From assembly GCA_021108215.1 (NCBI GenBank), contig JAIORK010000045.1, forward strand, positions 64,594-128,593: 64,000 bases of DNA, in the 5' to 3' direction. This document shows positions 3,214 through 63,276 of the stretch, in pieces; position 1 is the stretch's first letter; each line of letters starts with the position of its first letter. Source of the stretch: a bacterium. Its GTDB lineage: Bacteria; Oederibacteriota; JAAXVQ01; JAUVAV01. A model generated the notes under the pieces. That model was given only the letters and a program-made list of their open reading frames with translations. It made no database searches and was not told the DNA's origin. The translations under genes and the position numbers were made by a program.

Positions 3214-3522
3214 GTCGATCCTGAAAAAGTCAAATTGCAACTCATTACTCAATGAAGCCTGATCAAACGATTGAGCAAGTACGCTGCCGGGATTCGGATG
3301 ATACGATGATACCCTGCCTTCGTGGCCATTTTTTTTAGTGTCTATCCTCATCCCTGTTCCGACTTTTGTCCTTTGGCAGCTCACGCGGTCAATCGTTTGA
3401 GTAGGGAATGGTCGCGACCATTCCCTACTATCAGTGGCGACCTATGCGTGTTGTTGGACGCATAGGTCTTTTTTACTGTTTCTTCAACATTTCCAACACT
3501 TTTTGTGTTTTTCAGGATCGAC
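3214..3522 (+). mobile_element. MITE-like element copy A (full length, about 309 bp) with 15-bp terminal inverted repeats, internal REP hairpin and long-range stem
   Basis: 5' TIR GTCGATCCTGAAAAAG (3214-3229) and 3' TIR TTTTTCAGGATCGAC (3508-3522) are exact reverse complements. The body is shared at over 85% identity with copies at 8356, 21838 (reverse), 24893 and 60117. Internal REP at 3401-3428. CAAACGATTGA (3266) pairs with TCAATCGTTTG (3390). A downstream hairpin GACCTATGCGT/ACGCATAGGTC follows. Confidence 0.7.
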
Positions 3523-3578
3523 TATATAATTTCCCCGACTTGTGGCATAATGAGTCCACTTTTTTCAGGAGGCGTGTT

Positions 3579-4487: not shown

Positions 4488-5635
4488 TGACCCTTTTCCC
4501 GCAGCCAACCGTCACCGAACGTTTAAATAAAAAGCTGCCTGACCTGATTGCATTGTGGCGGGACCATTTCAACCTCCCCGGACCGCGCCATCGTCTACGC
4601 CTTCAGGAAACCACCGCCATCGCAAAAAAACTACGCCTCTTATCCCAGGGGTTGACCCGCGAACGAAAATTGGCCGGGAAAAATTATTTTTCCGATCCCT
4701 ATCAATTCGGTGCATACCTATTCTTTTTCTGGCCTGTTTCTTACGCCCAGGCGCGGTTCGTGCTGGACCCTCTCGTCCCGGGATTCAAGACCATCCTCGA
4801 GATGGGCTCCGGTGCTGCACCGCTGGGTACCGCCGCAGGCGACCTCAATGCCGGATCAGTCACCGCCCTGGATCGAAGCTCCGAAGCGCTCTTTTTTGCA
4901 AAAAAAATAATCCAGCAGCAAAAAAAGAAAATCACCACGACCCTCTGGCACGGCGGGACCACCCCCGCTTCCCTGCCAGGTCATTTTGATCTCATAAGTT
5001 TCCAGCATGTCCTCAATGAATTGTGGCCAAAAGATCCCGCCCGGGAACAAAGCATTCTTAAACTCCTTAAATCTGCGGCATCTCATCTCACACCCCGGGG
5101 TCAACTTCTCCTCATTGAGCCTGCGCTGACTGAGACCTCCCGGTGCCTCCTTAGGATCAGAAATGCTTTGCTGGACCAGGGATTCACACTTGCCGGGCCC
5201 TGTCTAACCCAAATGCATTGTCCCGCACTTTCTAAACCCAGTGACAGTTGTCATATTGATTGGCCCTGGTCTCCCCCTTCCCTGACCGAAGAGTTGGCCC
5301 GCTTATCCGGATTCAAAAAACATGATCTGAAAATGACATACTTTCTTTTTCATAAATCAGGCCCGCCCCCGCAAACCCCTTTGACCACGGGTTCATTCCT
5401 GATTGTCTCTGAACCCATGCTCTCAAAAAACAAGCGCATCCGGTTTATCGGGTGCGGACCTGCTGGCCGGCTCGGTCTTGCGCTGCATCCCAAAAACCGC
5501 GCTGCATCAAACGCGCTTTTTTTCACGCTCAAACGGGGCGACCACATCCGCATTCATGATTATGAATGCCAAGAAAACGGTATCCGGCTGCATCAGGGGT
5601 CTGGCGTCGAAGTGCTTTCGCGGGCAATAAAATAA
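4487..5635 (+). CDS. Putative class I SAM-dependent methyltransferase (Rsm22-like), translationally coupled to speE
   Basis: ATGA overlap with the speE stop. Methyltransferase motif I LEMGSGAAPLG is present. Function is uncertain. Confidence 0.45.
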   Translation: MTLFPQPTVTERLNKKLPDLIALWRDHFNLPGPRHRLRLQETTAIAKKLRLLSQGLTRERKLAGKNYFSDPYQFGAYLFFFWPVSYAQARFVLDPLVPGFKTILEMGSGAAPLGTAAGDLNAGSVTALDRSSEALFFAKKIIQQQKKKITTTLWHGGTTPASLPGHFDLISFQHVLNELWPKDPAREQSILKLLKSAASHLTPRGQLLLIEPALTETSRCLLRIRNALLDQGFTLAGPCLTQMHCPALSKPSDSCHIDWPWSPPSLTEELARLSGFKKHDLKMTYFLFHKSGPPPQTPLTTGSFLIVSEPMLSKNKRIRFIGCGPAGRLGLALHPKNRAASNALFFTLKRGDHIRIHDYECQENGIRLHQGSGVEVLSRAIK

Positions 5636-5717: not shown

Positions 5718-6989
5718 ATGACCGCACTATTAAACTTTTTAACCGCCCTCTGGCAAATTATGCTTGAACTGTCGCTATGGCTTTTCCTCGGTGCCTTCCT
5801 GGCCGGTTTACTGAAACTTTTTCTTCCCAAAGGTTTTGTCAAACGTCATACCGGCAGCGGCAAAATCAGCAGTATCTTCAAAACCTCCCTGTTGGGTATA
5901 CCCTTGCCGCTCTGCTCTTGCGGTGTCTTGCCTGCCACCATCGGCATCAAAAAAGACGGTGCCGGCAATGGTGCTGCCGTCGGATTTCTCATCAGCACAC
6001 CTCAAACCGGTGTGGATTCCATTCTGGTCACCGCCTCATTCCTGGGATGGCCGCTGGCGCTCTTCAAAGTACTGGCTGCTTTTTTCACCGGAATTTTGGG
6101 AGGATTGGCTGTCCACACGACCGAACCGCGCCTGTCCGCACAGACTGCAACCAGTGAAACATCAATTGCGGCATTTAAAAATAAAACCCCGCTTTCGCGT
6201 TGGCGCCTTTTTTGGGATTTTTCCGTCCGGGAACTCATCGGCGGCATCTACCAATATCTTGCGATCGGACTTTTGGTCGCAGCATTGATCACTGTTTTGT
6301 TTCCTGCCAATGCCTTTACAAACATGCCGGCTTTGCAGGGACTCTGGGGCATGCTGGTCATGCTGGCAATTGCAATCCCGCTTTATGTCTGCACCACAGG
6401 TTCCGTACCGATTGTCGCTTCTTTGATCGCTGCCGGTCTGCCAATCGGCTCTGCGCTGGTATTTCTCATGGCAGGACCGGCCACCAATGCCGCCACCTTG
6501 GCTGCCATTCTCAAACATTTCGGCAAACGTATCACCGCCATTTATCTGGGAACCGTGGTCCTCGGCAGCATTGCCTTTGGATTACTTTTTCAATCATGTG
6601 GTGCTTCCCTGGTCAGCACCACTTTGCGAACGCATCACGAGCATCAACCGCTGATCATGGTGCTCCTCAATATGCTGGCTGCGGTCTGTCTTACCGGACT
6701 CATCGGGTATTGGTCCGGCAAAGACCTGACAGCATGGCTGCAACAGCACCGCAAGCACCCGGCACCCACCGACGAAATCCTTTCGCTGTATGTTTCGGGG
6801 ATGACCTGTAAAAAGTGCGTTGCCAAAATCCAAACCACACTCTTAAAAAACCGGCAGATCACCCAAGTTAAGATTGATCTTGATACCGAGACGGTCCGCA
6901 TCAGCGGTCACACATTGGATGAAAAAACCATTATCCGGCACATCCAGGCTGCCGGGTATCCGGCCGCAAAAACCAAGGGGATTTTATGA
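5718..6989 (+). CDS. Metal(loid) permease (COG0701/ArsP-like, two transporter repeats) with C-terminal heavy-metal-associated (HMA) domain
   Basis: Polytopic membrane protein with a PLPLCSCGVLP motif (ArsP-like Cys pair). The C-terminal GMTCKKCVAKIQTTL...VKIDLDTETVRISG is an HMA fold with CxxC. ATG at 5718 with AAAAGG RBS. Followed by an ArsR-family gene with a 4-nt overlap. Confidence 0.7.
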   Translation: MTALLNFLTALWQIMLELSLWLFLGAFLAGLLKLFLPKGFVKRHTGSGKISSIFKTSLLGIPLPLCSCGVLPATIGIKKDGAGNGAAVGFLISTPQTGVDSILVTASFLGWPLALFKVLAAFFTGILGGLAVHTTEPRLSAQTATSETSIAAFKNKTPLSRWRLFWDFSVRELIGGIYQYLAIGLLVAALITVLFPANAFTNMPALQGLWGMLVMLAIAIPLYVCTTGSVPIVASLIAAGLPIGSALVFLMAGPATNAATLAAILKHFGKRITAIYLGTVVLGSIAFGLLFQSCGASLVSTTLRTHHEHQPLIMVLLNMLAAVCLTGLIGYWSGKDLTAWLQQHRKHPAPTDEILSLYVSGMTCKKCVAKIQTTLLKNRQITQVKIDLDTETVRISGHTLDEKTIIRHIQAAGYPAAKTKGIL

Positions 6990-8355: not shown

Positions 8356-8615
8356 CCCTCCTGAAAAAATCAAATTGGAACTCATTTTTCGATAAAGCCT
8401 GGTCAAACGATTGAGCAAGTACGCTGCCGGGATTTGGATGATACGATGACACCTCGCCTTCGTGACCACTATTTTAGTGTCTATCCTCATCCCCGTTCCG
8501 TGCTTTGTCCTTTGGCAGCACACGCGATCAATCGTCTGAGTAGGGAATGGTCGCGACCATTCCCTACTATCGGTTGAAATCTGTGCGCACTGTTGAACGA
8601 GTACGCAGCATGGGT
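8356..8615 (+). mobile_element. MITE-like element copy B (3' truncated, degenerate 5' TIR)
   Basis: Aligns to copy A across the body. REP at 8540-8567. Followed by the X motif CTGTGCGCACTGTTGAACGAGTACGCAGC. The listed minus ORF 8332..8523 is an artefact of this conserved noncoding DNA. Confidence 0.65.
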
Positions 8616-8791
8616 CCGGTCCGGATTATCCTCTCTCCACCCATCATCATACCCTATGACTATATCTTTTTCACGACCCCGGTATGATCTCTTGCCCACC
8701 GCGTCCGGCGAATGCCGGATTCGCTGCAAGTGAGACCAACAATGCGCACAGGCCGACTTGGCGAAAAAATCCAGAATACTTTTTTTAGAAT

Positions 8792-15715: not shown

Positions 15716-15764
15716 GGCACGGCATCCCGCATACGCCGGACAAGCTGCCGTGCCCCTACGTTTC
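15716..15764. repeat. REP-like hairpin (GTAGGGGCACGGCA...TGCCGTGCCCCTAC) with a CGCCGGACAAG loop, downstream of pfkA
   Basis: 14-bp perfect stem beginning with GTAGGG, as in the other REPs. The loop resembles the CCGGCGAATGCCGG family. Preceded by a T-run, so it may terminate pfkA. Confidence 0.5.
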
Positions 15765-21677: not shown

Positions 21678-21837
21678 AAATCCCCAGATGGCGGCATTAT
21701 ACCGCTCGGCGGTCACCAAGCTTTTCCATTCCCGGCAACATTTCACTTCGTTTTTCATATTATGCAACAACTCTATTTTAAATAGTCAATCCCGAAAACA
21801 CGAAACGTATCGGGAATATTAAAAAAACAAAAAAAGA

Positions 21838-22126
21838 TCTGTGTGTGCTGTTGAACGAATAAGCTGCAGGGGTAGGGAATGGTCGCGACCATTCCCTACT
21901 CAGACGATTGATCGCGTGAGCTGCCAAAGGACAACGGTCGAAACGGGGATGCGGATAGACATAAAGTAACGGCCACGAAGGCGAAGTATCATCGTATCAT
22001 CCAACTCCCGGCATCCGGCATTCGCCGGACAAGTTACGCCGGGCAATGCCTGGCAGCGTACTTGCTCAATCGTTTAACCGGGCTTCATCGGGAAATGAGT
22101 TCCAATTTGATTTTTTCAAGATCAAC
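21838..22126 (-). mobile_element. MITE-like element copy C (reverse orientation) carrying a nested 42-bp CCGGCGAATGCCGG-type insertion
   Basis: Reverse complement aligns to copies A, B and D. REP at 21872-21899. Degenerate TIR TTTTTTCAAGATCAAC at 22111-22126. Shares the insertion AGGCATTGCCCGGCGTAACTTGTCCGGCGAATGCCGGATGCCGG with copy D. Confidence 0.65.
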
Positions 22127-22171: not shown

Positions 22172-24796
22172 TCAGAGCGGAAAGTTTTTACGAAGATATT
22201 TGATTTCATCCTGCCGGGTAATTATTTTTCTTTCCAACCGCAACGCCAGCATTTTTTTTAATATCCGCTCATACACCGGACCGGGAGTGTACCCCATTTT
22301 TTTCAAATCCCGGCCGGTGGTATAAATTTTCACGTCCCGCCAGCGCGTCAAATACTTCCGAATAAGCTGTCCGGCAGGTTGTTTGCGATTTCGGTTCATT
22401 TCATACAGCAAAACCTCAACCGGAATATTTTTGAGACGGCGGACCGTCCCCATCGCTTGGGCACCGGCCATTTTCCCCAGCGCATCCACTGCCCGGTCAC
22501 CTGTTTTTTTTTGGACCAGCATCATCTCGGTTATTTTTTTAGGAAACTGACAGCGCTTGGCAAGCTCCAACATCTGAACAGTGCTCAACGGCGTCAGCAA
22601 GGTCATTAAATAGACTGCCGACTGATCAATTTCGTCTTCAAGAAACAAAATAACAAAAGCAAACGTTTCCCATACCGTCTCAACATGTGCCAGGACTTTT
22701 TTCATTGATTTCAGCGCCGGATGAATCCAAGGCCACAAACGCAACTGATCCAGACAGCGCAGCGCTTTTAAAGGTTGATCCTCCTTTAAAATCAGCATAA
22801 GTTCATCAAAGAGACGCGGCCGGGAAAGTTTTCCCATTAAATCACGTTTGAGCGCATGCTGAATATAACGCCGGGTATCCGGTTCAATGGCAAACCCAAA
22901 TCGCTGAGAAAAACGGATTGCCCTAAAAATCCGCGTCGGATCATCCACAAAACTTAAGGCATATAAAACCCGGATCAACCCGGCATGTAAGTCGTGCAAT
23001 CCGCCAAAATAATCCACCAATTCACCAAAGCGCCCGGGATTGATGCTGATGGCCATTGCATTAACTGTAAAATCGCGCCGAAACAGATCATATTTCAAGC
23101 TGGCCGCCTCCACCTGGGGCAACGCCGCCGGCGATACATAATATTCAGTCCGGGCTGAAGCAACATCAATCACGAAACTTCCGCGACAGTGAATTTTTGC
23201 AGTACCAAAACGTTCATGCGATTTTGCATGACCGCCTACCCGTTCGGCCAAAACCGCTGCATAGGCAATCCCATCGCCTTCGACCATGATATCCACATCA
23301 AGATTTTCCACCTGGAGTATAATATCACGCACAAATCCCCCAACCACATACGCCTTGATTCCCATGTGATCGGCAACCTCACCTGCGGTATGCAACAATG
23401 TCACCACACGCTCCGGCAAACGTTCCTGCAGCATGCGTCGAATTTGAGCACGGTCAAGCGGCCCTTCCTCCCAGGATGAAAAATAAGATTTTATAACAGG
23501 ATAAAATTCTTCCTCGCGGCCATGGCGCAAAATATCACTCTTGGTCACAATGCCGCAAATTTTGCCTTTTGTCACGATCGGCAGATAACTAATATTTTTA
23601 TCAATCATTTTTCGGCGGACACTCGACAGTGTTTCTTCCGGACCGGCAGTGACCGGCTGCGACCGCATAACCTCTTGAACAATCACCTGTTCCAGTCCAT
23701 GATGATATGCTTTGTCCAGGTCATGCAGTGTGACAATACCCACAAGTTGGTTTTTGTCAGTCACCGGCAATCCGGAATGCCTGAAACGCATCATCATTTT
23801 CCTGGCTTGCACGACCGTGGCAGCTGCCGTTACCGAAACCACCGGCGCGCTCATGATGGATGCCATAACAGCGGTCTTGGGAATCTCATGTTTAAGCCGC
23901 GCCAATAATTTACGGCGCAGTCCTGAAATATCGGTGTTTTTCAAAACCGCCGACGCGGCAGTGGCATGTCCGCCACCTTGAAATGCAGTGAGAATTTTCC
24001 CGCCATCCACACCGGGAAAACTGCTGCGTGCAATCACATAAGTGCGCGCATGCATTCGACAGAGGGCAAACAACACCGGAAGATTTTCCAATTCTTTAAT
24101 ACGATTGACAATCACCGCCAAATCCTCGATAAAAACTTCCCGTTGTGCCTGCACCAGACTAATTTCAACACCCTGGATGACGCGGGTAATGCGCGATTTA
24201 ATCAGATCCTCAAAAAGCAGTTGCTGTTCCTTGCGAAACGGCCGTTTCATGTATTCACTGACAATCGTAAGGTCCGCGCCCTGAGAAATCAAAAAACCTG
24301 CCGCAGCTAAATCTTCCGAACAGGTCGATGTATAGGTAAAATTCCCGGTCTCCTCGTACAGCCCCAATGCCAACAGGGTCGCTTCCATGGCAGTCAGGAT
24401 AATTTTCTTTTCTTGCAGCGCCTGAATGAGGATGGTGGTATTGGCTCCCACCTTTTTACAATACCGGCCGTGAGTACCCAGTCTGTTTTTTTTGTCCGGA
24501 TGATGATCATAACTGATTATCACCGGTGTCCCCTGATCAAGCAGTCGTCTAAATTCACCCAGCCTTTCCGCTGTGCTGACATCCACCAGAATAATTTTCT
24601 CAAATAGTTTGTTTCTTAAAAATCTGGCTTTGACCAACTTCGGAAATAAATCGGGATATTGTTTTATAAAATCACGTACGTTGTACTCCTGGGAACCAGG
24701 CAAAAAAATGTGCGCATTAGGGTACAGTTTGCCGGCTGCCAAAACAGATGCCAGGCCGTCAAAATCCGCATTGATGTGGGTCAGAATCAATTCCAT
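22172..24796 (-). CDS. Multidomain CCA-adding/poly(A) polymerase-family nucleotidyltransferase fused to DHH phosphoesterase and a CBS pair
   Basis: N-terminal DHH motifs (DFDGLASV, ISYDHHPD), two CBS domains, then GGFVRDIILQVENLDVDIMVEG (PolyA_pol head). Confidence 0.75.
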   Translation of the reverse strand: MELILTHINADFDGLASVLAAGKLYPNAHIFLPGSQEYNVRDFIKQYPDLFPKLVKARFLRNKLFEKIILVDVSTAERLGEFRRLLDQGTPVIISYDHHPDKKNRLGTHGRYCKKVGANTTILIQALQEKKIILTAMEATLLALGLYEETGNFTYTSTCSEDLAAAGFLISQGADLTIVSEYMKRPFRKEQQLLFEDLIKSRITRVIQGVEISLVQAQREVFIEDLAVIVNRIKELENLPVLFALCRMHARTYVIARSSFPGVDGGKILTAFQGGGHATAASAVLKNTDISGLRRKLLARLKHEIPKTAVMASIMSAPVVSVTAAATVVQARKMMMRFRHSGLPVTDKNQLVGIVTLHDLDKAYHHGLEQVIVQEVMRSQPVTAGPEETLSSVRRKMIDKNISYLPIVTKGKICGIVTKSDILRHGREEEFYPVIKSYFSSWEEGPLDRAQIRRMLQERLPERVVTLLHTAGEVADHMGIKAYVVGGFVRDIILQVENLDVDIMVEGDGIAYAAVLAERVGGHAKSHERFGTAKIHCRGSFVIDVASARTEYYVSPAALPQVEAASLKYDLFRRDFTVNAMAISINPGRFGELVDYFGGLHDLHAGLIRVLYALSFVDDPTRIFRAIRFSQRFGFAIEPDTRRYIQHALKRDLMGKLSRPRLFDELMLILKEDQPLKALRCLDQLRLWPWIHPALKSMKKVLAHVETVWETFAFVILFLEDEIDQSAVYLMTLLTPLSTVQMLELAKRCQFPKKITEMMLVQKKTGDRAVDALGKMAGAQAMGTVRRLKNIPVEVLLYEMNRNRKQPAGQLIRKYLTRWRDVKIYTTGRDLKKMGYTPGPVYERILKKMLALRLERKIITRQDEIKYLRKNFPL

Positions 24797-24892: not shown

Positions 24893-25167
24893 ATCGATCC
24901 TGAAAAAGTAAAATCAGAACTCATTTACCGATGAAGCCCGGTTAAACAATTGAGCAAGTACGCTGCCAGGCATTGCCCGGCGTAACTTGTCCGGCGAATG
25001 CCGGATGCCGGGATTCGGATGATACGATGATGCTCGCCTTCGTGGCCGCTATTTTAGTGTCTATCCTCATCCCCGTTCCGACCTTTGTCCTTTGGCAGCT
25101 CACGCGATCAATCGTTTGACCAGGCGATAGTAGGGAATGGTCGCGACCATTCCCTACTATCGGTGAA
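24893..25167 (+). mobile_element. MITE-like element copy D (intact 5' TIR, 3' truncated at the xerD stop) with a nested 42-bp insertion
   Basis: 5' TIR ATCGATCCTGAAAAAG at 24893-24908. REP at 25130-25157. Nested CCGGCGAATGCCGG at 24991-25004. Confidence 0.65.
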
Positions 25168-25188
25168 GACCGACTACACTCTCACCGC

Positions 25189-31984: not shown

Positions 31985-32354
31985 CACGACAATCCCAACT
32001 TCCTTAAAAATCCCAACCACTTCAGCATACAAAAACAGCATTATACGCATCTAATATATAATTGCGAATAAAAAAACCTGCACCTGCCATTAATTGCTGC
32101 AATCCGGCACCCAGATAAGCCGGGATCATGAGTGAGCGAACCATATACACCATCTTGGTATAGAGTGCGCCCAAAGCCAGTGCTTTAAAAACCTGATCTT
32201 CTTTGGCCAGCCCGTCGGCCAGTGCCATATCAACAACTTTCTCGCCTTTTTTGGCCAACAGGTTGACATATTTAATCGCCTTGGCAGCACTGATAAATTA
32301 CAATCGGCTTTTTAACTATAGTGAGTTGAAGAAACGCGCCCGGGTGTTTTTATC

Positions 32355-32383
32355 GTAGGGAACGGTTTCAAACCGTTCCCTAC
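32355..32383. repeat. REP element GTAGGGAACGGTTTCAAACCGTTCCCTAC (short-loop variant), preceded by the 28-nt direct repeat at 32324-32351
   Basis: Perfect 11-bp stem, 7-nt loop, 5' GTAG. Identical to the copy inside the RAYT gene. Confidence 0.8.
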
Positions 32384-32423
32384 AAACCCGTCCCCGTCCT
32401 ACCTGCGCCCCACCACCCATGCC

Positions 32424-32960
32424 CTACGGAATCTTTCCTTCCCATTCCGGATTTTCTTCATCTTCCGCCCACTTCAATGGATTATTTTGAATGTATTTTC
32501 TAATGCTATGCAATTCCCTGTCATTACGGATAATACGGTCGTAATAAGATTTTTGCCAAACCGGCAACCCCTGCGTTTGGCGTAATTGATTGATCGTTTT
32601 CGATGCATATGTTTTAAAACCACGTACGATTTCCGGCAACCCGTGGTGTTGTGTTTCATTCGTCGTAGGGAACGGTTTCAAACCGTTCCCTACAAAATTC
32701 GTGATAACAATAATTCCGTGTAAATGATTAGGCATAATCACATATTCATCCAATCGACAATGTCCATAATGGTGCGGCGGTTTTTCCCAATACGTCATCG
32801 CAATTTCCCCATATTCATTCAGTTTTATTTTACCATTTATTATTTCCCCGAATAAGCATTCCCGAGTATGTGTACACAAAGTAATAAAATACGCACCTGC
32901 GGCAGAATAATCATAATCCAACAGACGATTCCTTTTGCGTTCACGCATAATTGTTTTCAT
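32424..32960 (-). CDS. REP-associated tyrosine transposase (RAYT; IS200-like Y1 HUH transposase)
   Basis: HuH motif MPNHLHGIIVI and catalytic Tyr region WQKSYYDRIIRND...IRKYIQNNPLKW. Size and pattern are typical of TnpA_REP. Flanked by REPs. An internal 29-nt REP copy at 32665-32693 is translated in-frame. Confidence 0.8.
   Translation of the reverse strand: MKTIMRERKRNRLLDYDYSAAGAYFITLCTHTRECLFGEIINGKIKLNEYGEIAMTYWEKPPHHYGHCRLDEYVIMPNHLHGIIVITNFVGNGLKPFPTTNETQHHGLPEIVRGFKTYASKTINQLRQTQGLPVWQKSYYDRIIRNDRELHSIRKYIQNNPLKWAEDEENPEWEGKIP
32665..32693. repeat. REP copy located inside the RAYT coding sequence (encodes NFVGNGLKPFP)
   Basis: 29/29 identity to the REP at 32355, including the shared flanks TC...AAA. 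Confidence 0.8.
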
Positions 32961-33094
32961 ATCCCTGCCCTTTTTGTCGTGCTAATTTTTGTTCCTGCTC
33001 AGGCCAGCGCGCTTTTTTCAGATTAAGATGTTTACTCACATTTTTATTATCATCAAATTTCTCATTAAACTGTTTTTCTTTCAGCCGCACCTCT

Positions 33095-33625
33095 CTATTT
33101 CTTCCTGAATCCAATAGGTTTATTTTTCTTTTTGAGCGTTACAGGTAATTTGAGCATTTCATCAATAATGCCATCTATCCTGGTGATACGCTTGTCATGA
33201 TTAATCTGTTTCGCTTCCACTCGATTAAGATGTTTGTAGAGATCCTTGTGAATAACACTCCATTCACGTAATTTGGTGAAAGTACGCATGATTTGAATAT
33301 TAATCTGAATAGCCAGTTCATTTTGCAGCACGGTCGAAAGCATTGACACACCATTCTCAGTAAACGCGAATGGCAAATACTTGGAATGGCGTCCTTTCTC
33401 TAAGGTGCCAAATTGGCACCTTAGAGAAACCGTTTCTTCCTTTGTTAAGACGAGTAAAAAATCATCCGGAAAACGGCTGATATTTCTTTTCACCTGTCTT
33501 TTTAATTGTCTCGTTTCCACCCCATACAATTCCGCCAAATCCTGATCAAGCAAGACCTTTTTTCCACGAATAAAATGAATTTTTGATTGAATCGAGTCGA
33601 TGGGTACAATAATTTTTTCCGGCAT
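33095..33625 (-). CDS. ORF6N-domain (KilA-N-like DNA-binding) protein
   Basis: IHFIRGKKVLLDQDLAELYGVETRQLKRQVKRNISRFPDDFLLVLTKEE and YLPFAFTENGVSMLSTVL match the ORF6N domain consensus. Contains a 17-bp perfect hairpin at 33397-33431. Confidence 0.65.
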   Translation of the reverse strand: MPEKIIVPIDSIQSKIHFIRGKKVLLDQDLAELYGVETRQLKRQVKRNISRFPDDFLLVLTKEETVSLRCQFGTLEKGRHSKYLPFAFTENGVSMLSTVLQNELAIQINIQIMRTFTKLREWSVIHKDLYKHLNRVEAKQINHDKRITRIDGIIDEMLKLPVTLKKKNKPIGFRKK

Positions 33626-33765
33626 GAGTCCTCCATATTCGCGTGATATGGAGTTAGACTAAAAATCCCTAAATTTCATGCAAATAAAATCACCTTGGCT
33701 CAAAATATTTCTATTACGGTATTTAGTTGAAGAAACGCGCCCGGGTGTTTTTGTAAGACCTAGTC

Positions 33766-33814
33766 GTAGGGAACGGTCAGCTTGCCTGACGAATGCCGGG
33801 CGACCGTTCCCTAC
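33766..33814. repeat. REP element, long-loop variant (GTAGGGAACGGTC-[AGCTTGCCTGACGAATGCCGGGC]-GACCGTTCCCTAC), preceded by the 28-nt direct repeat at 33725-33752
   Basis: Same stem as the other REPs, with a nested CGAATGCCGGGC-type insertion in the loop. Near-identical copies at 42205 and 43326. Confidence 0.8.
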
Positions 33815-36817: not shown

Positions 36818-37191
36818 TGCCTCCAATAAAATTTATCGTGCTAGTGCGAACACGATGGACAGCCTGCCCCGCGAATGCGGGGTAAACCCGTGAATTTTTA
36901 TAAAACATATTATAAATATATTGCATCACTGTTTACAAGGATTATTATTCATCTCAGCTTTTAAAAATCTTATCCACAAATTTCCACGGTGTTCATATTT
37001 TTTTCTTATGCCCTGCTCTTTGACATCAAAACAGACAATTCGCAGGATCGGCAAAGAATGTTTTTTTAGTTTATATCCATTATTTAATAGTTTCATTTCT
37101 TTGCGTGCTTTTTCGCTTCGCGGCTTAGCGTGAGATGTTTTTATTTTCGCTTTTACCCTATGGGTCGTCGTTCGGGTTGATTCGCGAAAGA

Positions 37192-42204: not shown

Positions 42205-42253
42205 ATTCATCACCGTAGGGAATGGTCAGCTTACCTGGCGAATGCCGGGCGAC
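42205..42253. repeat. REP element, long-loop variant (GTAGGGAATGGTC-[AGCTTACCTGGCGAATGCCGGGC]-GACCATTCCCTAC)
   Basis: Same family as 33766 and 43326. In the cargo/fba divergent intergenic region. Confidence 0.8.
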
Positions 42254-43325: not shown

Positions 43326-43374
43326 GTAGGGGACGGTCAGCTTGCCTGGCGAATGCCGGGCGACCGTTCCCTAC
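43326..43374. repeat. REP element, long-loop variant (GTAGGGGACGGTC-[AGCTTGCCTGGCGAATGCCGGGC]-GACCGTTCCCTAC)
   Basis: Directly downstream of the fba stop. Confidence 0.8.
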
Positions 43375-48118: not shown

Positions 48119-48196
48119 ATAAAAAAACCACAGGCTTACCCGGCACCCGGCATTCGCCGGGCAAGTACGCCGGGCAGGCTGCCTGTGGTTTTTTTA
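48119..48196. terminator. Bidirectional terminator (hydC/rfbC) with a nested CCCGGCATTCGCCGGG palindrome in its loop
   Basis: AAAAAAACCACAGGC ... GCCTGTGGTTTTTTT outer stem. The inner CCCGGCATTCGCCGGG lies at 48146-48161. Confidence 0.65.
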
Positions 48197-53080: not shown

Positions 53081-53420
53081 TCAGTTTAAAATTCCCGGCC
53101 GCAGGTTGCAAGATTTTTTTAAATAAAAAAAACATTTTATCCAAATTAAAAAATACGACAACTAACAGGATCGCCCTAAGTGCTGATTTTAAAGAAAAAA
53201 ACTTGTCCGGCGGATGCGGGACGCACCACAAGTTCTGATGGAACATCAGGAGACTTTATCGTCAAATCCTGCTCTAGCGTATGGACACAGTATCAGTTTT
53301 CCTTTAAAAATCAGTACTTAGGGTGAACAGAAAACAGCGTGTTTTATAACTCGGACATCCGTGTAAAAAAAAGGAAAAAATGTCAAAACTGGGGAAACTG
53401 CTTCCGAAAGGTTATGAAAA

Positions 53421-58527: not shown

Positions 58528-59442
58528 TCATCGCCACGGTCCTGAGGCATGCCATGTTTTTTTAAATTCCCGCCCTTTCCCTATCGCTTCCAGCGGCTTA
58601 ATCAGGAATTTTTCAATTTCGGCAGCCGTGTTACGCAATTTTTCCGGCGCATTCCTTATACCTTCTTTTTCCAAAAATGCCTTCCACAGTGTCTGGCGGT
58701 CAGATCTCTCATCGTATATTTCCCCATCAAATATCGGCTTATGAATAGGTAAAGATGTCTTGCGATGACTAAACGTGCTATTCAATGCCTGGGCCAACTT
58801 ACTCCCATCAAATTCGAACTGACGCAGCATTAGCCAAATATCGTAAAAATCTTTCATACGGCTGTTCAAAAGACCAAGTTTTACCATCGCTTCAAATTTC
58901 TCGCTAATCACGCTTTCCGCAGGATACACCTTAAGGCGGGGCCTGGGAAAATCCAGAATTACGGGGTAGTCAATGGCTTTTGGTTTTGGACAAATTACAT
59001 CACCAAACCCGACATCAACCTGGATCGCAATGCGGGCACGATCCAAAAAAACCAGGAATTTAACCCGGACACCTTCATAATCCGCGTCTTCCTTTATCTT
59101 CCGCCCTTTGACTGTAGCAGCATCAAACTCAAGTCCATCCGGCAGTACTGGAAACACGCAAATATCCTTGATTATTTTTTCAATACTTTCCACTTGATTG
59201 TCAAACCGGGCTAAAAAATCTATATCACGGGTCGCCCTTCTTTCCGTAACCTGCCAGGCAATAAACGTAAGTGCCCCTTTGAGTATAAATTTGTCTGCAT
59301 ATTGGGATTGGCTAAACCTGTAAAGAAATCTTTCCATTCCAAAATATTGCAATATTTCAGAAAATGAACAACCGGTTTCTTTCGCCTTGTTTTGTAGCTT
59401 GGCCCGGACAGAGGCTTCCAGATTTTTTACGTCCGCTTTCAT
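58528..59442 (-). CDS. abiEii: AbiEii/AbiGii-family nucleotidyltransferase toxin (type IV TA, abortive infection)
   Basis: FILKGALTF ... ERRATRDIDFLARF matches the AbiEii (DUF1814) KGG.AL...R.T.DIDF signature. 304 aa. Confidence 0.75.
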   Translation of the reverse strand: MKADVKNLEASVRAKLQNKAKETGCSFSEILQYFGMERFLYRFSQSQYADKFILKGALTFIAWQVTERRATRDIDFLARFDNQVESIEKIIKDICVFPVLPDGLEFDAATVKGRKIKEDADYEGVRVKFLVFLDRARIAIQVDVGFGDVICPKPKAIDYPVILDFPRPRLKVYPAESVISEKFEAMVKLGLLNSRMKDFYDIWLMLRQFEFDGSKLAQALNSTFSHRKTSLPIHKPIFDGEIYDERSDRQTLWKAFLEKEGIRNAPEKLRNTAAEIEKFLIKPLEAIGKGREFKKTWHASGPWR

Positions 59443-60038
59443 AGAATCGCTTCCAGTACTGGTTTTATGATTCTGTCAACACGGCAAAGCTTGGCATATT
59501 GCATAATCTCTTTGGGCTTTGCTTTTTTTTCCAGGACAGCACCTTTGAGGGCATCTCGCGCCACATTCACGCCTATTCTATTACGGAATTTAAAGCAATC
59601 TGCAATGGTCTTAGCAAGACTATAAACTTTGATCTTATGACCTCCGATTTCAAATTCTTCGATCCCGGCTTCCCATGTCCGGGGAGCAAAGCGATAAAAC
59701 CTTACCAGTGGATATTTTATTCGATTGGCATGGGTTCCCTGGAGAATAGCTATATCCACTTTGTGAGGTATCTCATTGGTTGCTTCATGAAATGCTAATG
59801 CAGAAATAAGGCAAATAACGCCTCTGGGTGCTTGGCGCGATGCTATAACCAAATCCGGATGAGAACCATAATTGTTATTGGTTAGCTGGTATAGACCCCG
59901 GGCGATCTTTTCTATTTTCCCTTCTTTCTCAAGCAGGTTGAGGGAATCCGGATGAAATCCAGCTTCCAAAACAGCAGAAAACCGGACTATACCGCCGTTA
60001 TTCCAGATAAATTTTATACATTCATGTATTTTAGCCAA
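59439..60038 (-). CDS. abiEi: AbiEi-like antitoxin/transcriptional regulator
   Basis: 199 aa. 4-nt overlap with abiEii. wHTH-like N-terminal region. Palindromic operator-like sequences upstream (60045-60100). Confidence 0.6.
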   Translation of the reverse strand: MAKIHECIKFIWNNGGIVRFSAVLEAGFHPDSLNLLEKEGKIEKIARGLYQLTNNNYGSHPDLVIASRQAPRGVICLISALAFHEATNEIPHKVDIAILQGTHANRIKYPLVRFYRFAPRTWEAGIEEFEIGGHKIKVYSLAKTIADCFKFRNRIGVNVARDALKGAVLEKKAKPKEIMQYAKLCRVDRIIKPVLEAIL

Positions 60039-60116: not shown

Positions 60117-60389
60117 AATGCGATGATACCTCGCCCTCGTTGACCACTTTTTTAGTATCTATCCTCATCCCCATTCCGTACTTTGTCCTTTGGCAGCTCA
60201 CGCGATCAATCGTTTGAATAGGGAATGGTCGCGACCATTCCCTACTATCGATGGAGGCCTGTGCGCATTGTTTCACTCCTATGCTGCAAAGAGGCCTTCT
60301 GATTTATCGTGCTAGTGCGAACACGATAACATCCCCTTTTTACTGTTTCTTCAATAGTCACAATGCTTTTTATGTTTTTCAGGATCGAC
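60117..60389 (+). mobile_element. MITE-like element copy E (5' truncated; intact 3' TIR) abutting the AbiE island
   Basis: Aligns to copy A from GATGATAC through to the 3' TIR TTTTTCAGGATCGAC (60375-60389). REP at 60218-60245 (5' G to A). The listed minus ORF 60061..60276 is an artefact. Confidence 0.65.
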
Positions 60390-63081: not shown

Positions 63082-63276
63082 AAGTCATCTCCTTTTCAAT
63101 CCAAGCATCTGTCATAGCACATTTCACCCGTCCTAGGGCAGATAAAATTCCCAAAAACAAAATAATCATCCCCGCACTCTTGCCCGGCGAATGCCGGGTG
63201 AACGCGGGGATGATTATTAATCGTGATACACCGGGCCTGTCTCTCCACAATTAAAAAGTAGAGACGCCCTCCCTTT

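Follow-up and report, generated by a model that had tools for sequence, protein, structure and literature searches.

A probable MITE-like repeat family with nested palindromic modules in intergenic DNA of an uncultured bacterial lineage

Several families of non-coding repeats with terminal inverted repeats are generally known from bacteria, among them the Correia/NEMIS elements of Neisseria, ERIC of enterobacteria and RUP of Streptococcus pneumoniae. They are intergenic and multi-copy, often lie near gene starts or stops and fold over their full length into a long hairpin; Correia elements also have TA flanks. REP/REPIN-RAYT systems consist of GTAG-headed, extremely conserved extragenic palindromes and a RAYT gene, and the BIMEs of E. 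coli are mosaics of several short palindromic modules. Members of the IS200/IS605 family have no terminal inverted repeats and carry subterminal hairpins at both ends. The non-autonomous PATEs, some of which contain guide-RNA scaffolds, derive from this family.

The repeat family described here occurs in a 64,000-nt stretch of bacterial DNA (the window), which matches positions 64589-128588 of a 167-kb contig from a metagenome (ENA ERZ26872896, NODE_16). With Correia/NEMIS, ERIC and RUP it has all the features just named in common, possibly including the TA flanks of the Correia elements. It differs from them by a length two to three times theirs (about 310 nt), by its nested REP and hairpin modules and by having no known parent transposon; the comparison is one of descriptions, and no sequence similarity is expected. 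It resembles the REP/REPIN-RAYT systems in its extremely conserved, GTAG-headed extragenic palindrome of 28 nt and in the presence of a RAYT-like gene flanked by REP variants, and the BIMEs in being a mosaic. However, its 310-nt body is not built of REPs, has inverted repeats of its own and exists in a REP-less copy (L007). Non-autonomy, strong secondary structure and a Y1 (HUH) relative in the host are shared with the PATEs. Unlike these, the element has inverted repeats, and its sole REP hairpin lies in its interior; genes for TnpB or IscB were not seen.

We regard the family as probably a decaying composite MITE-like repeat that was once moved in trans and that holds a nested REP and a small hairpin repeat. 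The preliminary description of this DNA had called the repeats MITE-like and had suggested either a structured small RNA or an IS200/IS605-like derivative mobilized by the RAYT. The name MITE-like proved apt: the element is non-coding and short (309 and 342 nt in the complete copies, below the limit of about 600 bp for MITEs), it has terminal inverted repeats, its copies lie at unrelated intergenic loci and it is absent from the matching sites of relatives. The derivation from IS200/IS605 through the RAYT was not supported, as terminal inverted repeats are present, the strong hairpins (core and REP, Table 1) are internal, one copy (contigs L007 and L008) has no REP, and REPs occur without the element.

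Copies, boundaries and genomic setting

Five copies in the window, A to E, were recovered alike by a repeat search, by BLASTN and by an nhmmer profile (E-values between 3e-103 and 2e-68), at essentially the positions proposed before (Table 1). Neither further fragments in the window (nhmmer profile from the copies) nor further copies in an additional 15 kb flanking the window were found. A scan of metagenomes with the element gave four contigs, all from the same species. L005 matches the copy C locus with 99.5% identity and is thus from the same species; L006 holds a new copy truncated at its 5' end; L007 and L008 hold a new copy with a complete body that has no REP. The preliminary description had expected hundreds of copies genome-wide; the evidence consists of seven distinct loci, the five in the window and those of L006 and L007, together with short-read contigs that end within copies.

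L007 and L008 are JGI contigs from sister samples and share the element copy and its 3' flank (L008 1400-1420, L007 873-915). They diverge upstream of …TTCCCGATGAAGCC, where L008 runs into coding sequence and has no 5' inverted repeat. This difference is either an assembly chimera at the repeat or a real rearrangement between copies.

Logan short-read contigs terminate inside the REP of copies A and E, at the site of the insert in copy B, and within copies C and D, the usual behaviour of an assembly at a multi-copy repeat. Every sampled strain of the same species has the same copies, with no presence/absence polymorphism among them. A conserved core 21-mer had no exact match in 185,579 species-representative genomes, copy A had no BLASTN match in a plasmid collection, and a shorter 19-base core pattern was absent from the viral contigs scanned.

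Table 1. Positions of the repeat copies, their parts and related features (window coordinates unless a contig is named)
Feature	Position	Strand	Remarks
Copy A	3214..3522	+	complete, 309 nt; both inverted repeats
Copy A, 5' inverted repeat	3214-3229		GTCGATCCTGAAAAAG
Copy A, core hairpin	3264-3399		closing stem 3264-3275 / 3389-3399
Copy A, REP	3401-3428		
Copy A, terminator-like hairpin	3439-3468		followed by T-run
Copy A, 3' inverted repeat	3507-3522		
Copy B	8356 (approx.)..8627	+	core intact; 3' end and 3' inverted repeat missing
Copy B, REP	8540-8567		intact
Copy C	21785..22126	-	complete, 342 nt; both inverted repeats degenerate
Copy C, REP	21872-21899		
Copy C, 42-nt nested insert	about 22014-22055		direct repeat TGCCRGG on flanks
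Copy D	24893..25173 (approx.)	+	5' inverted repeat kept; 3' part missing
Copy D, 42-nt insert	about 24964-25005		
Copy D, REP proper	25130-25157		
Copy E	60118..60389	+	5'-truncated, begins within left arm of core
Copy E, REP	60218-60245		ATAG replacing GTAG
Copy E, 3' inverted repeat	60374-60389		intact; tail longer
RAYT-like gene	32424..32960	-	partial match to IS200-like Y1_Tnp (C-terminal half of Pfam domain), E = 3.7e-5
REP variant inside RAYT-like frame	32665-32693		
REP variant beside RAYT-like gene	32355-32383		
Solo module of about 40 nt, as nested in C and D	48139..48176	-	in loop of terminator-like hairpin
Small hairpin motif	33786-33799, 42235-42248, 43346-43359, 15726-15739 (-), 63184-63197		
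Small hairpin motif	48147-48160 (-), 8705-8718, 36868-36881, 53207-53220		also in inserts of C and D
Small hairpin motif outside the window	L006 4804-4817; L007 763-776 and 963-976		

In copy A the arms of the inverted repeat span 29 nt with 83% complementarity and contain a perfect 15-nt core, GTCGATCCTGAAAAA. Both complete copies, A and C, have inverted repeats at both ends, and four others have the repeat at their surviving end; it is the 5' repeat that is retained in D and L007 and the 3' repeat in E. The first bases of the 5' repeat of copy B are lost, and TCCTGAAAAAA is its sole remainder. Copy A had been taken for the only one with both repeats. Copy C has them too, in the degenerate forms GTTGATCTTGAAAAAA and TTTTCGGGATTGAC, and its extent is therefore 21785-22126 and not 21838-22126, i. 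e. about 53 nt longer than assumed.

At six ends the boundaries are sharp and lie in common at the inverted repeats. Upstream of their 5' ends the copies are dissimilar in sequence, and thus the 5' boundary sits at the inverted repeat. The 3' boundary is slightly uncertain, since copies A and C match in 13 of 15 positions (GAcTTGTgGCATAAT) about 20 nt past the 3' repeat (p ~0.01, uncorrected). The matching sequence, GA(C/G)TTGT(G/T)GCATAAT at 3530-3552 and 21757-21777 (-), resembles an extended -10 promoter element, and the one at copy A precedes the speE start by about 30 nt. Either two AT-rich targets happen to agree here, or the element has a promoter that points outward.

Most copy ends read TA-GTCGATCC...GGATCGAC-TA. 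The dinucleotide TA stands before the 5' end of C, D and L007 and after the 3' end of A and C; on the left side of A and on the right side of E it is replaced by CA, and both ends are present in two copies only. Duplication of TA is typical of IS630/Tc1-type elements or Correia elements. The flanking TA could accordingly be a target duplication or, equally, a part of the repeat. A longer target duplication (5-9 bp) was sought in A and C and was inconsistent between them.

All copies are intergenic and non-coding, occur in every orientation relative to the neighbouring genes and are flanked by unrelated housekeeping genes. Copy A lies upstream of speE on the same strand, with 56 nt between its end and the start of this gene (3579), so that it does supply the upstream region of this gene as had been proposed; its terminator-like hairpin is 105 nt upstream of the start. 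Copy B lies between convergent genes and copy C directly past the stop of a same-strand gene. Copies D and E are antisense between tandem genes. Their ends are about 16 nt from the stop of a xerC-like gene and 53 nt from that of an M16 peptidase gene, respectively, in line with the earlier remark that both abut gene stops. An AbiEi/AbiEii toxin-antitoxin pair (58528-60038, minus strand) adjoins the truncated 5' side of copy E. Any effect of the element on neighbouring genes would be incidental, through the terminator-like hairpin of copy A or through long hairpins in read-through transcripts.

Six-frame translation revealed no reading frame that is conserved among the copies. A 295-aa concatenation of stop-free translated element frames matched no protein at E up to 0.01 among 5.8 billion, and spurious ORFs over the element are missing from the protein collection. 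A small peptide was considered and rejected: the 27-aa frame of copy A is lost in copy B, where the start is ATA, and stops after four codons in C and D. A tRNA-derived origin was likewise rejected, there being no tRNA or tmRNA genes in the window.

Nested palindromes and the REP/RAYT system

The element is a set of nested palindromes. The outer inverted repeats pair mutually, and inside them lies a hairpin of about 135 nt that is held together at its base by a 12-bp stem (CAAACGATTGAG / TCAATCGTTTG). The three conserved body segments named in the preliminary description were all found, and this stem is the pairing that it had drawn between the end of the third and the first. The left arm of the core can be aligned with the reverse complement of the right arm (…GCTGCC…GGGAT..GGATGA…). 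The long core hairpin is thus explained by arms that are an old inverted DNA duplication, and no RNA function is needed. An identity of over 85% applies to the core only; over the whole length the window copies are 72-86% identical in pairwise comparison.

The nested REP is a GTAG-headed palindrome of 28 nt, GTAGGGAATGGTCGCGACCATTCCCTAC, and is present in all five window copies. It had been described as perfect, which is true of four copies; copy E reads ATAG for GTAG. With 10 extra nt (CCAGGCGATA), the REP stem of copy D forms a palindrome of 38 nt. L006 has a REP lengthened in the same way, and the two extensions show a compensated difference (CGAT…ATCG vs CGCC…GGCG). L007 has no REP, and …GGTTGAG is joined directly to ACCTGTACG….

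The second nested module is a small hairpin of about 20-42 nt that contains CCGGCGAATGCCGG. Its 42-nt form is the insert previously reported for copies C and D, which was seen in both, flanked by direct repeats of TGCCRGG. A 21-nt version occupies the same site in L007, and copies A and B have no insert. The module was also found alone (48139-48176) and in the tail of L006; the solo occurrence means that it is separable from the element. The small hairpin motif, (C)TTGYCCGGCGAATGCCGGRTG, occupies the loops of larger hairpins with stems of unrelated sequence (among them REP arms, ATAATCATCCCCGC and CCACAGGC), and at 36868 it reads CCCGCGAATGCGGG, with a compensated flip of G-C to C-G. A constant loop with variable stems is the reverse of an ordinary REP. 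Judged from these patterns, the motif may represent either a terminator module or another family of repeats; with low probability, the CCGGCGAATGCCGG hairpin is a second, undescribed kind of structured repeat.

The hairpin tail, which had been called variable, is strong and terminator-like in copy A (z = -5.4) and of moderate strength in E, whereas B, C and L007 do not have it, and a conserved terminator tail was rejected as its strong form occurs in A only. A third separable module, the short ATCGTGCTAGTGCGAACACGAT palindrome, is common to the tails of E (60296-60325) and L006 (about 4845-4870, minus strand) and to window positions 36835-36856. At this last, unrelated site near 36.8 kb the small hairpin motif follows directly.

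Smaller palindromic repeats are therefore nested in the element, namely the CCGGCGAATGCCGG module and a REP of GTAG type (28 nt) that belongs to the resident RAYT system, and the modularity is directly visible in the REP-less L007 with its 21-nt insert version, in the insert-less copies A and B, in solo REPs and in solo inserts.

The RAYT-like gene (Table 1) has one REP variant of the type GTAGGGAACGGTTTCAAACCGTTCCCTAC inside its frame and one beside it. The next gene, at 33095-33625, encodes an ORF6N-domain protein. The block 32323-33814 is bracketed by the direct repeat AGTTGAAGAAACGCGCCCGGGTGTTTTT, with a REP after each repeat copy. The RAYT-like gene, which may be degenerate, lies outside the 310-bp element and is the probable source system of its REP; with such a gene present in the window, a relation of the nested REP to RAYT is plausible. 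For the 28-nt module taken alone, an extragenic palindrome and a RAYT-like gene with REP variants are what a REP-RAYT system has.

Ten REP-type palindromes occur in the window, where none is expected by chance. Variants with other inner stems or with loop insertions lie at 32355, 32665, 33766, 42215, 43326 and 15720. L007 has at about 745-830 a REP with the outer arms GTAGGGAAC…GTTCCCTAC, a different inner stem and a nested loop insert. The related contig L020 (52% protein identity) has a REP of the same type at 6177-6204 (GTAGGGAACAGGCATGCCTGTTCCCTAC), again with the outer arms GTAGGGAAC…GTTCCCTAC and a different inner stem. REPs that match the window pattern exactly were found in three IMG/VR viral contigs (L022, L023, L024), from which the element is absent. 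REPs thus occur in L020 and in viral contigs without the element, which indicates that the REP system is older and more widespread than the lineage-specific 310-nt element.

Conservation is uneven along the element. Differences from the consensus amount to 0.6% in the REP (1/168), 2.9% in the 34 nt before it (core-right), 3.8% in the left base of the core, 9% in the leader, 11% in the 5' inverted repeat (11-18% for the inverted repeats overall) and 28% in the tail. The REP differs significantly from the body (5' repeat through core-right, 6.4%; Fisher p = 0.0007), and the effect for core-right is modest (p = 0.02). Termini that are less conserved than the core base and the REP are the reverse of what would be expected from selection for transposase recognition alone. 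This unevenness keeps alive a reading in which the central part of the repeat is maintained by RAYT or by selection on a hairpin.

In its RAYT form this reading holds that the repeat was maintained or spread by RAYT and REP, that the unit consists of the REP and the adjacent core base, in the manner of a BIME or REPIN, and that the outer repeats are incidental. Besides the near invariance of the REP and the conservation of the 34 nt beside it, the compensated extension of the REP stem in D and L006, the RAYT-like gene with its REP variants and the retention of core-right and REP in every window copy despite other losses speak for it. However, this region is central, so that random truncation from either end would also keep it. 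The full body exists without the REP in L007/L008, and REPs exist without the element, as variants in the window, in the three viral contigs and, in a related GTAGGGAAC-type form, in the distant L020. The RAYT-like frame itself has an internal REP and matches the C-terminal half of the Pfam domain only. REPINs are formed by two inverted REPs with a spacer and measure about 100 bp in total (bioRxiv 10.1101/2021.07.10.451892). Each element here has one REP palindrome; with this single, internal REP and the REP-less copy, the whole 310-nt element does not fall under REPINs or REP-RAYT repeats. On these grounds we think maintenance or spread by RAYT rather unlikely.

It is a still longer shot that the base of the core hairpin together with the REP (3264-3290 and 3366-3428 in copy A) is a functional DNA or RNA module kept by selection or by RAYT while its vehicle decays. 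If this were true, the repeat would be a composite of a fused DDE-type MITE and a RAYT-dependent unit, maintained by RAYT in a candidate phylum without cultured members. The MITE-like reading that we prefer explains neither how the nested REP stays nearly invariant nor why fewer changes have accumulated at the foot of the core hairpin than in the inverted repeats.

The core hairpin and the question of a structured RNA

A different origin of the family would be that the core of about 135 nt has its own function, either as a structured non-coding RNA or as a structured site in single-stranded DNA, and that its gene was multiplied; it might be the scaffold of a guide RNA, a small regulatory RNA or a hairpin bound by a protein. 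The fold is indeed very stable (z = -10.2), conservation of its basal stem region exceeds that of the leader and the inverted repeats about threefold, and in copy A a canonical terminator follows the core and the REP. Yet the reverse strand folds equally well (z = -12.1), as expected for a DNA palindrome.

The preliminary description could not match the element to a known RNA family, and a search with Rfam agrees with this: nothing in the whole window reached a gathering threshold, and when E-values of up to 10 were allowed copy A matched OmrA-B only, with 15.7 bits against a threshold of 40. This match is at chance level (E = 2.4) and covers the REP and the terminator of copy A. That no Rfam family matches is in itself weak evidence against an RNA, because the lineage is unstudied.

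The consensus fold of five sequences has 52 pairs, of which 96% are formed. The conserved structure that had been put forward gains no support from covariation: none of the 52 pairs is changed on both sides, a count that comes from five sequences and has low power. Seven changes break a pair and six are wobble-compatible, which is near the neutral expectation, and shuffles gave the same picture as was observed. In B, C, D and L007 the long-range stem has mismatches without compensation, four different ones in all. The element strand of copy A showed no promoter-like site; a conserved promoter was not found either, and the terminator is not conserved. The copies, three of the five in the window truncated, stand in every orientation relative to the genes. 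Furthermore, the element is absent from about 45 kb of relatives, as against about one copy per 13 kb here.

The structured small RNA of the preliminary description is hence disfavoured by the missing Rfam match, the lack of compensatory pairs, the stem mismatches, the inconsistent orientation and the lack of a promoter-like site. Within the limits of five to seven sequences, the comparison of the copies speaks against a structured RNA, and we hold a multiplied RNA gene or single-stranded DNA site to be very improbable.

Insertion history and significance of the family

In the large protein collection, the closest relatives of the CBS/polyA-polymerase protein encoded beside the element have 48-58% identity, and the only one with an informative name comes from candidate division FCPU426 (53%). 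Deltaproteobacteria, NC10 and similar groups follow with about 40%. Among the 185,579 species-representative genomes the best relatives of the polyA-polymerase protein have 34-36% identity, and no close genome was found there. Judged by these protein similarities, the host is probably an uncultured lineage related to FCPU426.

The gene order PilZ-XerC-CBS/polyA-polymerase (window 22172-24796, minus strand) is kept in three related contigs (L017, L018 and L020; 52-58% identity). Measured between called genes, their spacers between XerC and polyA-polymerase are 236, 162 and 0 nt long, vs 393 nt here, where the spacer holds copy D. Those downstream of polyA-polymerase are 3-210 nt long, vs 495 nt here, where the spacer holds copy C. 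A profile search of the relatives' loci, about 45 kb, did not recover the element, of which the density in the window would predict about 3.5 copies. An alignable empty site was not found. Since the matching spacers are short and free of the element, copies C and D are probably lineage-specific insertions.

These spacers also bear on the idea that the copies are not mobile at all and are what remains of a single intergenic region that underwent segmental duplication or recombination long ago. Such an origin would fit the truncation of most copies and the fact that neither a transposase nor a clear target duplication was found. It does not fit the unrelated 5' flanks and unrelated flanking housekeeping genes, the sharp boundaries shared by six ends at the inverted repeats, or the short and empty matching sites in the relatives, and we find it hardly credible.

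In the preferred MITE-like reading, the ancestor would have been an imperfect palindrome of about 250 nt, with outer inverted repeats of 15-30 nt that begin GTCGATCCTGAAAAA and inner arms that derive from an old inverted duplication. It would have been moved in trans by a putative transposase that recognized the inverted repeats, and would have inserted into AT-rich intergenic DNA, possibly at TA. In the window and its flanks neither the cognate transposase nor a full-length parent element was found, and a DDE transposase is absent from both. Decay of the copies is evident: one end is missing from five of the seven (among them B, D and E, three of the five in the window), the inverted repeats are mutated and the stem mismatches are uncompensated. 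With this share of truncated copies and inverted repeats that are 11-18% off the consensus, they look old.

For the host organism, the family explains why short-read assemblies break at the sites of the element. It also calls for caution, as the long hairpin should not be taken for an RNA gene. The family marks the intergenic DNA of an uncultured FCPU426-related lineage and is of little import beyond annotation. Three kinds of palindromic repeat are clearly nested in one another, and the near-invariant REP inside a decaying carrier could serve the study of how REPs are maintained.
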